64,000 nt of DNA from a virus: the IMG/VR virus record IMGVR_UViG_3300042449_001328, positions 25,690-89,689 of that record. The stretch is one strand, 5' to 3'. A program made the position numbers and the translations under genes. This document shows, piece by piece, positions 23,370 through 25,747 of the stretch. Within the stretch, counting starts at the first letter, position 1, and every line of letters begins with the position of its first letter. The notes below the pieces were generated by a model that was not told where the DNA came from, did no database searches, and was given only the letters and a program-made list of their open reading frames with translations.

Positions 23370-25747
23370 AAAAAACCGTCTTCTGACTTTTTTATTTTAG
23401 TCTTTGCTTGTTCTGCTTTCCTAATCTCTATTTCCCTTTTTGCTGCATTACTTAATGTAGGATCTGAATGTGATTTCATTTTCATCAAAATATCATTTGA
23501 CGTCCTACCAGCGTGTTCAGCTAGTTTTTCAGGTGAATGTTGGAATTTTCCCTTGCTGTTAGCTTTTTGTTGATCGTTATTTTCAGATTTAGAGATTAAA
23601 GTTTTTTTCTTTAACCTACTCTCCCACAAAATTTTACCGTCAGGGGTTAAGACATTATCATTTTTTACAAACTCTAGGCCATGTTGTTTTTCTGCTAATT
23701 CATAAAGCAATGAACCTATTCCTTGACCCCTATGATTTGGATCTACTTGTACAGTTGTAGCTATTAAATTCGGTTTGAATTTGTTTTTTATATAAGTCAT
23801 GTCTCCCACATGATTGTTACCTTTTTTAGCAATAATTTTATATTCATTGTCATCCAAATGCTTTATATGAAATGAAGCATTTTCTCCATTTTTAAGTTTT
23901 TTTTCATAAATAGGGTAACCTAAGTTTGTGTGACCTACAACAATTCCACCCCTATCCCCCTCAGCTTTTTCGAGATCGTTACTCTCACCCTTCTCAATTC
24001 CAAAATACTCTTTTAAGTGTTCTTTAGTGTCTTTAAATAAATCCGCTGCCATCCACTCGTTTACTGACATAAACTTTAATTGAGTAGCTTCGTTTTCTAA
24101 ATCAATGTTAGCTAGAGGTGAAGTGCCTAAGTCTTGATAGAAATTTATGCAGTAACCGTTTAATGTTTGACCTGTTGGCAATTGCTTAGTGTAGCATGGA
24201 ACTAGATAAGAGGATTTGTCAATGTCTAGATTTGTTTCTTCTTTGAATTCCCTGAATGCTGCTTCGTCTGGTCTTTCATCTCCGTCCACATGACCTCCAG
24301 GCAGCATCCATTGTCCGTTATCTTCTCTTTTCATTAAAAGCAACTTTCCTTCGTGGTCTGTGTAGATAATTGCTACATAGTCTCCTTCGGCTTTTTTTAG
24401 CTCGTTGCTTAATTCTTTCTTTTGCTTTTTAGCCTCTTTCTTTTGCTTTTCATCGTCATCCTCTTCTAGTATTTTTACTAGGTTCTTATGCTCTTCGATG
24501 AATTCATCTTTTGGGATTTCAACTTTTTCAGACTTTTTTATTTCACCTGAGATATGTTTTTTTACCGTATCTACTATTTGTTGTATAGAATCTCCTTCTT
24601 TAACATCTATATTTATAAACTCAACATTTGGGTGTTCTTTTTTTATTTCTTCAAACGAAGTCTTATTTCTCCTATAATCTGAATTATTAAAATCGCCTAC
24701 AGTAACATTGATTATCTTTTTCAACCCATCATCTTCAATGTCTGAATTAAAGTTGCTCCAATCAGGTGTATGGTCTTTCACCCTTATTCCTATATCTCCA
24801 AACCTAGCATAGCCTTGATTCCCTAACGGGAAACCTAATGAGGCTTGTATGTCAAATTCAGCTTTAACTTGATTTTTTTCATCTAAATCGTAATCTTTGA
24901 ATTTATGACCCGATAAAGCTGATTTAAAAGTAGTATGCCCTCTTACTCCACTTCCAATCCCTCCCTTACTCAACTCTATCTCCACAGCTAGTTGATATAC
25001 TCTTTCGGCTGATTCTAGGTCTAGGTTGTGAGATTTTTGGAGGTCGATTAGGATGTCGGCTTTAGAAACTTCCTCTTTTTCAACTTGAGTTTTATGGTAA
25101 TTTTCACTCATTCTATGAGCAGATTCATTAATGCTTGAATCTTTTATTTTACCATCACTGCGAGTACCATGTTTTTTATAAGAATCTGTTAATATTTTAT
25201 TATGAGCATTTTGAGCATCTATATGGTCTTGTTTTGAAAAACTCGCATAATGATCCAAAACTTTTGATTTTGTTCCAGGTTTTAAATGAGATTCATAAAT
25301 CGGTTTATTTGATTGCGTAGTCCCTATAACTTTTCCGCCTTTAGAACCAACGCCGCCTTTCTCAATTAGCTCCTCTAACTCCTTCTCAGCTTTTTCTATC
25401 CCTTCGTGAAACTTAGCTACCTTATTGATAAACTTATCTTCGTTCTTAGATCTCTTTTCTTGAAGGATTTGTTTTGTGGCTTGGATTTCTTCGTTGCCTT
25501 CTGATTTAACTAGGGCTTGATCGCAGGCTTGAATTTTAGATTCAAATTCCTGATCTATTTCATCGAAGTTTTCGATTGCTTTTTGCAAGTCCTCTTTGCC
25601 TAACTCAATTACCTCCTCCAATGCCTCTGCTTTGCGTAGTTCTATTTGATCGGCAGTAAGATTGTTGCCTTGTTCATCTTGGATAACAACTCCGGGGATT
25701 TCTTTGATAGTGCCAAAAGCATTACGGATAGTTGAAAATAAATTCAT
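23351..25747 (-). CDS. Modular putative internal head polyprotein with NUDIX and GNAT domains
   Basis: Nudix box GGHVDGDERPDEAAFREFKEETNL; GNAT motif A VDPNHRGQGIGSLLY; two IGHT-like modules; many xK/[AGS] linkers; late promoter 25780-25792. Confidence 0.8.
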   Translation of the reverse strand: MNLFSTIRNAFGTIKEIPGVVIQDEQGNNLTADQIELRKAEALEEVIELGKEDLQKAIENFDEIDQEFESKIQACDQALVKSEGNEEIQATKQILQEKRSKNEDKFINKVAKFHEGIEKAEKELEELIEKGGVGSKGGKVIGTTQSNKPIYESHLKPGTKSKVLDHYASFSKQDHIDAQNAHNKILTDSYKKHGTRSDGKIKDSSINESAHRMSENYHKTQVEKEEVSKADILIDLQKSHNLDLESAERVYQLAVEIELSKGGIGSGVRGHTTFKSALSGHKFKDYDLDEKNQVKAEFDIQASLGFPLGNQGYARFGDIGIRVKDHTPDWSNFNSDIEDDGLKKIINVTVGDFNNSDYRRNKTSFEEIKKEHPNVEFINIDVKEGDSIQQIVDTVKKHISGEIKKSEKVEIPKDEFIEEHKNLVKILEEDDDEKQKKEAKKQKKELSNELKKAEGDYVAIIYTDHEGKLLLMKREDNGQWMLPGGHVDGDERPDEAAFREFKEETNLDIDKSSYLVPCYTKQLPTGQTLNGYCINFYQDLGTSPLANIDLENEATQLKFMSVNEWMAADLFKDTKEHLKEYFGIEKGESNDLEKAEGDRGGIVVGHTNLGYPIYEKKLKNGENASFHIKHLDDNEYKIIAKKGNNHVGDMTYIKNKFKPNLIATTVQVDPNHRGQGIGSLLYELAEKQHGLEFVKNDNVLTPDGKILWESRLKKKTLISKSENNDQQKANSKGKFQHSPEKLAEHAGRTSNDILMKMKSHSDPTLSNAAKREIEIRKAEQAKTKIKKSEDGFFLNSLF

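Follow-up and report, generated by a model that had tools for sequence, protein, structure and literature searches.

How several folded enzymes come to lie in one chain among the head genes of a tailed phage, and whether that chain is taken into the capsid and cut there, is the question raised by the locus described here. The window analysed is a stretch of 64,000 nucleotides (nt), positions 25,690 to 89,689 of IMGVR_UViG_3300042449_001328, an 89,689-bp IMG/VR virus record that is estimated to be 91% complete and stems from an uncultured myovirus of ~90 kb; positions are those of the window. A preliminary description drew attention to positions 23590-24400, where a NUDIX and a GNAT enzyme seemed to be bracketed by predicted cleavage sites. 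This interval corresponds to residues 450-720 of a 798-residue protein, P0001, encoded on the minus strand by the open reading frame (ORF) 23351-25747: codon 450, for the Leu of LKK/AEGD, starts at nt 24400 and codon 720, for the Lys of ISK/SE, occupies 23590-23588. The peptides and predicted sites quoted at that time are real, and all are found in this ORF between residues 450 and 720. As judged from sequences and structure models, the best-supported explanation, to which we give slightly better than even chances, is that P0001 would be a capsid-cargo polyprotein cut by the prohead protease. This reading is carried by a motif that is enriched, specific for Lys, positioned at domain borders and conserved in relatives, by synteny with head genes and by the gain and loss of a GNAT cassette.

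The candidate sites follow the strict motif [LIVMF]-x-K/[AGS]-E, where the slash marks the predicted cut, and they divide the protein as follows.

23351-25747, minus strand: ORF of the putative 798-residue cargo polyprotein P0001; the exact protein is present on 4 contigs
25391-25747, minus strand: acidic N-terminal leader (isoelectric point 4.6), residues 1-119, with strict sites after K39, K81 and K119
24965-25357, minus strand: module B, residues 131-261, of a family starting with G-S-[KR]-G-G-x-V-I-G-x-T-..-P-I-Y
24533-24964, minus strand: module C, a compact alpha/beta domain, residues 262-405, between K261/G262 and K405/S406
24392-24532, minus strand: charged linker ending in LKK/AEGD, residues 406-452
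23990-24391, minus strand: NUDIX fragment of 15.4 kDa, residues 453-586, with the Nudix box at residues 485-507
23966-23989, minus strand: octapeptide spacer GESNDLEK between K586/G587 and K594/A595, disordered in the structure model
23588-23965, minus strand: GNAT fragment, residues 595-720, with a disordered N-terminal AEGDRGGIVVGHTNLGYPIY tag followed by a minimal core at about residues 614-717
23354-23587, minus strand: basic C-terminal tail, residues 721-798, with strict sites after K777 and K787

Ten strict motifs occur in P0001, against a mean of 0.48 and a maximum of 5 when its residues are shuffled (0 of 5000 shuffles reach 10). The 65 ORFs examined contain 23 such motifs, 17 of them in four head proteins (10 in P0001, 4 in a scaffold-like protein, 2 in the prohead protease and 1 in the major capsid protein) and six as singletons elsewhere. 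A looser scan was also made, in which P2' was E, D or G and each of the 20 amino acids was tried at P1 in turn. Five head or cargo proteins (2125 residues) then gave 30 matches with Lys at P1 and at most 3 with any other residue, and the other 60 ORFs (15,727 residues) gave 10 matches with Lys. Because Lys far exceeds every other P1 residue in the head and cargo proteins, the signal is considered real and Lys-specific. The head protease of phage T4 cuts after Glu, within the motif L/I-x-E, and P1 is Glu at the cleavage sites of phage SPN3US.

The position of the sites was compared with AlphaFold models of residues 440-735 and 255-410, for which the predicted local distance difference test (pLDDT) values are 82.4 and 77.3, respectively. 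An alignment covering three modules (A1) put the second halves of module-C homologues under the GNAT domain, and alignments A2 and A3 were used for folding. In the models, K452/A453 lies at the end of a linker helix, 4 residues ahead of NUDIX strand 1, and K586/G587 lies 4 residues past the last NUDIX helix. K594/A595 falls in a stretch with pLDDT <50 (residues 594-610), the GNAT core beginning near residue 614, and K261/G262 and K405/S406, also with pLDDT <50, flank module C on either side. K720/S721 stands 3-6 residues beyond the ends of standalone GNAT homologues. When the cores are delimited by the ends of standalone homologues for module C and GNAT and by the alignment with the solved structure 3q1p for NUDIX, they take up ~72% of residues 255-735, and all six strict sites of this region lie outside the three cores. 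By post hoc arithmetic assuming uniform placement, six sites would all fall in the remaining 28% in about 5 of 10,000 cases. The idea that predicted cuts coincide with domain boundaries, which sites inside folded domains would have contradicted, holds for five of the six sites in the structure models. It also agrees with the ends of standalone proteins, with the motif at the NUDIX borders of relatives and with a natural variant devoid of the GNAT module; K720/S721, placed by the model in a helix, is ambiguous in this respect.

Conservation of the borders was examined among the relatives of P0001. An exhaustive HMMER search returned 2133 proteins at an expect value (E) of 0.001 or better, from which a list of 150, including the query, was used for counting motifs and tags. 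Among the 149 others, 53 near-full NUDIX domains could be analysed. A strict site is found from -3 to +8 residues before the NUDIX start in 20 of the 53 (3.4 on average with random placement), from -3 to +12 residues after its end in 26 (random mean 4.1) and at both borders in 16 (random mean 0.5). Only 4 of 192 strict sites lie inside NUDIX cores, although the cores make up 15% of the residues. Some relatives terminate or begin exactly where a cut is predicted: P0005 ends with ...IVK and P0007 with ...VIK, which correspond to the predicted P1, and P0043 starts with M-GGEGSRGG, the sequence that follows a site elsewhere (predicted P1').

The modules themselves are widely exchanged. The leader (residues 1-120) recurs in P0002, P0004, P0035 and others and is kept in relatives that bear different modules; it is a candidate prohead-targeting propeptide. 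The closest relatives retain the leader and the NUDIX domain and exchange the rest, as with a P-loop module in P0002 and DUF6496 in P0003. Module B exists as a standalone protein of 110 residues and in 7 tandem copies in P0012, and in P0022 three copies of it are fused behind a prohead protease. Proteins of ~110 residues consist of the mini-GNAT, which is also repeated in P0099, and the C-terminal tail carries a conserved segment of the HA..TS...L.K... type that is common to relatives. The bracketed domain noticed upstream of the two enzymes in the preliminary description (residues 262-405, module C) also turned out to be a real and widely reused module. It is found as standalone proteins of 117-134 residues and within proteins of 2000-4500 residues, one of which, the 3715-residue P0009, carries Kinase-PolyVal. 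Module C contains a conserved R-[VIL]-K-[DNE]-H motif and an invariant R-x-K-x-H-x-P signature. Foldseek gave no match to the Protein Data Bank (PDB) at E 0.001 or better (best E 0.24). A wide VIA-align search assigned no fold (best Z 5.5), and Hef/XPF and some restriction-endonuclease chains matched weakly, at Z 4-5.4, a range that the tool calls common. For module B, the protein atlas contained no usable feature match and its structure matches had template-modelling (TM) scores of 0.37 or lower.

Several side observations concern module B and the linkers. Module B also builds two other ORFs of the window, 7178-8578 (466 residues) and 13635-14615 (326 residues), as strings joined by LVK/GG, LIK/A, FMK/GG and LMK/GG; both share a leader that ends in ...QLENLLVK/GG. 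The segment SKADILIDLQKSHNLDLESAERVYQLAVEIELSK of P0001 (residues 227-261, 24965-25069) resembles a C-terminal segment of the protease (protease residues 250-288), and a similar segment recurs behind the protease domain of P0022 as SKAEILTSLLSDHNLDIESAKTVYRLAEAIEK/AEG. A tag of ~20 residues, G-S-R-G-G-x-V-I-G-H-T-x-S-G-K-P-I-Y, follows candidate cut sites. In P0001 it spans residues 595-617 (23897-23965) and is disordered in the structure model. It is present in 50 of the 150 proteins of the HMMER list, the query included, and in 85 of its 93 instances hydrophobic-x-K-[AGS] stands at most 14 residues ahead of it. Full-text literature searches for the tag strings SGKPIY, GKPIY and GHTKSG returned no paper on phages, as judged by title.

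A natural variant illustrates how modules may be exchanged. Four public freshwater runs, each from a different study, supplied contigs for alignment to 23000-24400, and in run X11 one segment is swapped.

23550-23963, minus strand: segment replaced by 12 nt in run X11, from the third base of codon 595 to the second base of codon 733

The variant lies on a 36-kb contig that matches on both sides, differing at 11 of 550 nt in one flank and at 26 of 437 nt in the other. The exchange is in-frame, replaces 138 codons by 4 codons and eliminates the GNAT module. Codon 595, for the Ala of K594/A595, contains one junction; the second is located 13 codons beyond K720/S721. Because one junction of this in-frame exchange coincides with K594/A595, the GNAT is regarded as a cassette that can come and go at a linker. 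Of the 21 substitutions listed for the NUDIX part of the same variant, 19 affect third codon positions and two change an amino acid; the sequence indicates that the NUDIX domain is under purifying selection.

That both enzymes are present, as had been proposed, is confirmed by profile comparisons. The NUDIX domain (residues 458-576) matches Pfam PF00293 with 54.4 bits against a cut-off of 21.1. Its Nudix box, GHVDGDERPDEAAFREFKEETNL, conforms to G-x5-E-x7-R-E-U-x-E-E and retains all catalytic positions, and the penultimate G of the box is replaced by N, as in close relatives. Residues 7-132 of the predicted fragment (453-586) align with the solved NUDIX enzyme 3q1p, and the top matches listed by Foldseek for the model are NUDIX enzymes of many specificities (best E 5.6e-8, 4nfx). 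The 22 matching NCBIfam models all score well short of their cut-offs (best 33.7 versus 103), and since this includes every equivalog, no substrate is assigned. PADLOC gave only a generic NUDIX-level match, PDC-S07. The GNAT fragment contains motif A (RGQGIG, residues 673-678) and by itself passes two Pfam cut-offs, with 28.6 versus 27 for Acetyltransf_7 (PF13508) and 27.9 versus 20.7 for Acetyltransf_1 (PF00583). Acetyltransf_7 is matched by 8 of 8 aligned members, namely this fragment and seven standalone homologues of 85-122 residues. It is called a minimal GNAT because the match is restricted to positions 28-87 of the 116 in the profile, that is, the central strands and the motif-A helix. 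The model shows five strands and two helices in ~104 residues. In a search of PDB sequences, the profile of the GNAT alignment found GNATs at E 0.016 or weaker, and the fragment alone gave nothing better than E 0.22. On this sequence evidence the small domain is a minimal GNAT, with a putative activity.

The genes around P0001 are all on the minus strand and place it in a head module, where NUDIX, GNAT, module B and module C are united in one ORF between portal and protease. The order is given below.

48728-50260, minus strand: large terminase
40779-42437, minus strand: portal
25795-35019, minus strand: methyl- and glycosyltransferase block, including nucleotide-sugar epimerase genes, between the portal and the putative cargo gene
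Next after P0001 in gene order, minus strand: 712-residue ORF
Between the 712-residue ORF and the prohead protease in gene order, minus strand: 497-residue virion protein
18611-19477, minus strand: prohead protease, 31% identical over 160 residues to the protease of phage A511
17820-18548, minus strand: scaffold-like protein of 242 residues, with 4 strict and 13 loose sites
16276-17781, minus strand: major capsid protein, with SLLK/AMQAG at residues 24-31

The tail sheath gene is located beyond the major capsid gene, and a homing-endonuclease-like ORF (6224-7129; phrog_314, E 3e-45) lies between the tail sheath gene and a putative cargo polyprotein gene. The stretch 23000-24400 or close variants of it are present in 24 lake-water or freshwater metagenome runs from 19 studies, on the strength of which the phage looks recurrent in freshwater; 8 of these runs contain at least half of the sampled words of that stretch, and 6 are possible sources of the DNA analysed here. 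No RNA dataset is among the runs listed. Searches of a phage collection with positions 16000-27000 (megablast) and with P0001 (tblastn) gave no match. A search for related loci with P0001 alone found no relative, and two relatives, besides P0001 itself, came from a word-indexed protein search.

The immediate neighbour of P0001 is the cluster of glycosyltransferase, methyltransferase and sugar-epimerase genes, directly downstream of which it lies. This raises the possibility that P0001 is not cargo and comprises late metabolic enzymes placed beside head genes, for instance in the service of the adjacent 9-kb cluster; GDP-mannose mannosyl hydrolase is indeed among the many weak NUDIX matches given by Foldseek and NCBIfam. 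The related loci make this improbable. When viral contigs were scanned with a degenerate pattern, 194 loci related to the NUDIX region came up, and 80 of them were retained. A protease homologue lies within ~1 kb after an ORF that combines leader and NUDIX with the same linkers in 29 of the retained loci; a portal is found upstream in 28 of these 29 and a capsid gene downstream in 27, so that the NUDIX ORF is enclosed between portal and protease in 28 of the 80. Thirteen portal-NUDIX-protease ORFs were inspected. They consist of the leader, a coiled coil with hydrophobic-x-K/S sites, ...VK/S followed by NUDIX, then ...K/A... and a C-terminal domain, and none contains a GNAT. The gap between portal and NUDIX ORF is ~1.2 kb in the related loci inspected, compared with the sugar-gene block 25795-35019 here, and because it is that short no glycan cluster fits into it. 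The nearest cultured phage by capsid protein (54.5% identity), Chryseobacterium phage MA9V-3, encodes a solo NUDIX protein of 235 residues directly upstream of a 532-residue protease-scaffold fusion rich in hydrophobic-x-K/[AGS] (PV245944.1, 11619-13931; all features of this region are annotated as hypothetical). The syntenic loci and the arrangement in MA9V-3 show that the NUDIX goes with the head module rather than with the glycan genes, and the leader, the module-B units and the shared motif likewise tie the protein to head proteins.

If P0001 is a substrate of the prohead protease, the same motif should make sense in the classical substrates. The C-terminal part of the protease itself bears IMK/GG, FEK/AD, IWK/AEG and FSK/GE. 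The protease resembles that of A511 at E 6e-21, and the capsid protein is 23% identical to its A511 counterpart (E 7e-13), which by sequence assigns it to a lineage that includes Herelleviridae. According to the mat_peptide feature of the A511 record, the mature capsid protein starts 23 codons in, after ...QEDALK and before SFTTGYG. In the capsid protein of the window, ...EVDSLLK/AMQAGTVTG at residues 21-36 matches the DALK/SFTTG of A511 by eye, and the A511 protease has a second copy of the site, FMK/SWTTGHG. Another candidate, IRK/AE at residue 114 of the capsid protein, was rejected as the maturation site, both for the reason that residues 49 onward align with the mature capsid proteins of relatives and since the A511 site corresponds to residues 27/28. 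The A511 annotation is the only link to an experimentally derived site and was seen as an annotation; no cleavage sites are given in the available sections of PMC5618024 and PMC12282133 (here as below, the cited papers are represented by sections of their text, unless the main text is named).

Several points weigh against a protease-cut cargo. That reading rests entirely on sequence, models and comparison, and the A511 mat_peptide feature on the annotation of a record. The motif is not sufficient alone, because a copy lies inside the mature part of the capsid protein and six singletons lie in ORFs other than head genes; the former, IRK/AE at residues 114-118, belongs to the part alignable with mature A511 Cps (query 49-493), and cleavage there is improbable. 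The linkers are rich in K and E, a local composition for which shuffles of the whole protein control incompletely. Among the 29 syntenic loci are many on near-identical contigs that come from a few samples, and the loci do not count as independent cases. K720/S721 is inside a predicted helix (residues 702-733, pLDDT ~80). In giant polyvalent proteins, module C lacks flanking motifs, from which it follows that modules can work uncut. Finally, the cuts made by the prohead proteases of T4 and SPN3US remove propeptides and do not set several enzymes apart (PMC9026906, PMC10052503).

These points lead to an alternative in which P0001 would be an uncut multidomain virion or late protein of the polyvalent type, its K/E-rich motifs serving for docking or as conserved linkers, either flexible or helical. 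Chains of 2-15 domains that work as one polypeptide have been described for polyvalent proteins, and the virion RNA polymerase of N4 is packaged unprocessed (Iyer 2017, PMC5512222). The helix at K720/S721 and the proteins of 2000-4500 residues in which module C is free of K/[AGS] motifs would both be accommodated, and NUDIX followed by mini-GNAT in the same order in P0115, P0126, P0087, P0143 and P0112 could reflect two domains that work together. Such a chain would leave unexplained why the motif is also present in classical protease substrates, namely the scaffold, the C-terminal part of the protease and the N-terminus of the capsid protein, why the requirement for Lys is strict, and why standalone proteins begin or end at a predicted P1' or P1; in addition, the related capsid protein of A511 is annotated as matured after Lys. 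An uncut protein is considered unlikely, with perhaps one chance in a handful.

Whether the prohead protease is the enzyme in question depends also on what lies behind the P0001 stop codon, where two features are found.

23367-23375, minus strand: run of nine T (T9) just before the stop codon of P0001, a possible -1 slippage site
21042-23372, minus strand: downstream ORF in the -1 frame, open from T9; its first ATG, GTG or TTG is at 23180, 60-odd codons on

No insertions or deletions at T9 are reported in the four runs covering it. Upstream of the TTG start, runs X8 and X11 share a double change at 23226/23228, from CTG to TTA, that keeps Leu in the -1 frame, and in this frame IQK/G is read there, after which comes a short motif similar to one of P0014; the sequence suggests that this stretch is translated in the -1 frame. 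A -1 shift, giving a fusion of ~1570 residues, is plausible on these sequence grounds. No stimulatory structure is proposed, because the 87 nt downstream of T9 fold no better than shuffles (z -0.78). In its C-terminal part the downstream ORF contains HEFAH, a motif like that of M78/DUF6782 metallopeptidases, with weak matches around it to DUF6782 (E 1.6e-4), Peptidase_M78 (E 7.9e-4) and CapP (E 1.3e-3), all three below the curated cut-offs. Because of these sub-threshold matches self-processing was kept among the explanations: P0001 might be cut by this metallopeptidase-like domain, as proposed for DdrB-type polyvalent proteins of phage P1, or by a host protease. Autoprocessing by such domains has been proposed (Iyer 2017, PMC5512222), and the frame that is open from T9 looks coding. 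Yet, apart from the low scores of the matches, no peptidase is part of the same protein in the sequences inspected of P0002-P0008 and of the 13 portal-NUDIX-protease ORFs, all with the same linkers, and the motif also marks the normal substrates of the prohead protease. Processing by another peptidase is accordingly rated as improbable, on a par with the metabolic interpretation.

For cutting by the prohead protease, the following course of events can be proposed; we infer the cuts, the cutting enzyme, the packaging, the ejection and the targets from the evidence above. The N-terminal leader of ~120 residues would bring P0001 into the core of the assembling prohead. There the prohead protease would cut after Lys in the hydrophobic-x-K / [A,G,S] linkers, chopping up the leader and releasing module B, module C, the NUDIX hydrolase and the minimal GNAT as free products of 14-16 kDa. 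A -1 slip at T9 may add an extension bearing the metallopeptidase-like domain. The fragments would stay in the head and exit with the DNA, and would then be able to act before any phage gene expression. The NUDIX enzyme would act on some compound in which a nucleoside diphosphate is linked to another moiety (NDP-X), molecules derived from NAD or ADP-ribose being a published guess. A role in host conflict is a conjecture. More tentatively, and with odds well below even, the prohead protease may double as a polyprotein processor of plug-and-play cargo. Any domain flanked by linkers and attached to the leader, often with the tag of ~20 residues behind it, would be loaded and freed in the capsid as an enzyme, cassettes would be swapped at the linkers in nature, as in the strain devoid of the GNAT, and the tag after the sites would be a second signal, for example for retention on DNA or in the capsid interior, or for ejection. 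If the cuts are real, a tailed phage would rely on a polyprotein, as RNA viruses do, and deliver pre-made enzymes, in a set that can change, together with its DNA. The motif would then provide a simple sequence rule for finding injected effectors in the genomes of uncultured phages and might also guide the design of capsids loaded with foreign proteins, and the NUDIX, the minimal GNAT and modules B and C would be candidates for early anti-defence functions.

How does this arrangement compare with known systems? A511 has a homologous capsid protein and protease and an annotated maturation after Lys; unlike here, its 6.4-kb stretch from portal to gp90 contains no annotated cargo polyprotein or NUDIX, and its protease follows ~100 nt after the portal. 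In T4, the internal proteins IPI-III and the enzyme Alt are loaded into the prohead core via propeptides of 7-65 residues that are removed by gp21 (PMC9026906). N-terminal propeptide loading and a motif shared with scaffold and capsid proteins are common to both cases, and the T4 cargo is ejected with the DNA; T4 uses separate genes with a propeptide each (PMC9026906), whereas here several folded modules occur in one chain, with a candidate P1 Lys read from sequence alone. In the giant phages SPN3US, phiKZ and 201phi2-1, many internal or ejection proteins likewise have in common a motif at which the prohead protease processes them; several cuts are made in long propeptides, and the protease trims off its own C-terminal part (PMC10052503). 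For gp245 of SPN3US, 14 cleavage sites have been mapped in nine head proteins, and at 13 of these an N-terminal propeptide is taken off. In contrast to the present case, no site in the available text on SPN3US separates two enzymes, and its logo fixes P3-P2-P1 and differs (PMC10052503).

The polyvalent proteins offer another parallel, with unrelated effector domains, including GNATs, in one chain whose gene lies in the midst of virion genes and for which delivery together with the DNA is predicted (Iyer 2017, PMC5512222). They differ in that processing by embedded metallopeptidases is proposed for them, and the main text of that paper lacks the word 'linker' and contains 'prohead' once and NUDIX once. 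A Pfam scan of P0001 found no signature polyvalent model (MPTase-PolyVal, LPD, Kinase-PolyVal and so on). The earlier premise that NUDIX and GNAT domains recur in polyvalent proteins is therefore only partly accurate: GNATs are described there, and a head-packaged NUDIX was instead proposed by Iyer 2022 (PMC9503650), according to whose prediction NUDIX proteins from the late or head gene clusters of myoviruses enter the capsid and are injected to counter signals derived from NAD or ADP-ribose. In that paper NUDIX is also found fused to MuF, portal or a capsid-processing serine peptidase; 'GNAT' is absent from its main text, and its available sections describe no polyprotein delimited by cut sites. 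In a limited literature search, no cargo polyprotein delimited by cut sites in lysine linkers was found, nor did papers on the head proteins of phage Mx1 or on the A511 cleavage experiment come up; related NUDIX-GNAT proteins may be among the architectures listed in the supplements of Iyer 2017 and 2022. What this locus adds is that several folded enzymes lie in one chain, each bounded by a candidate capsid-protease Lys motif, with natural exchange of cassettes. Since processed head cargo and head-packaged NUDIX enzymes had already been published, what is gained over these systems is not a new principle but an architecture that is defined and a cleavage code that can be tested.

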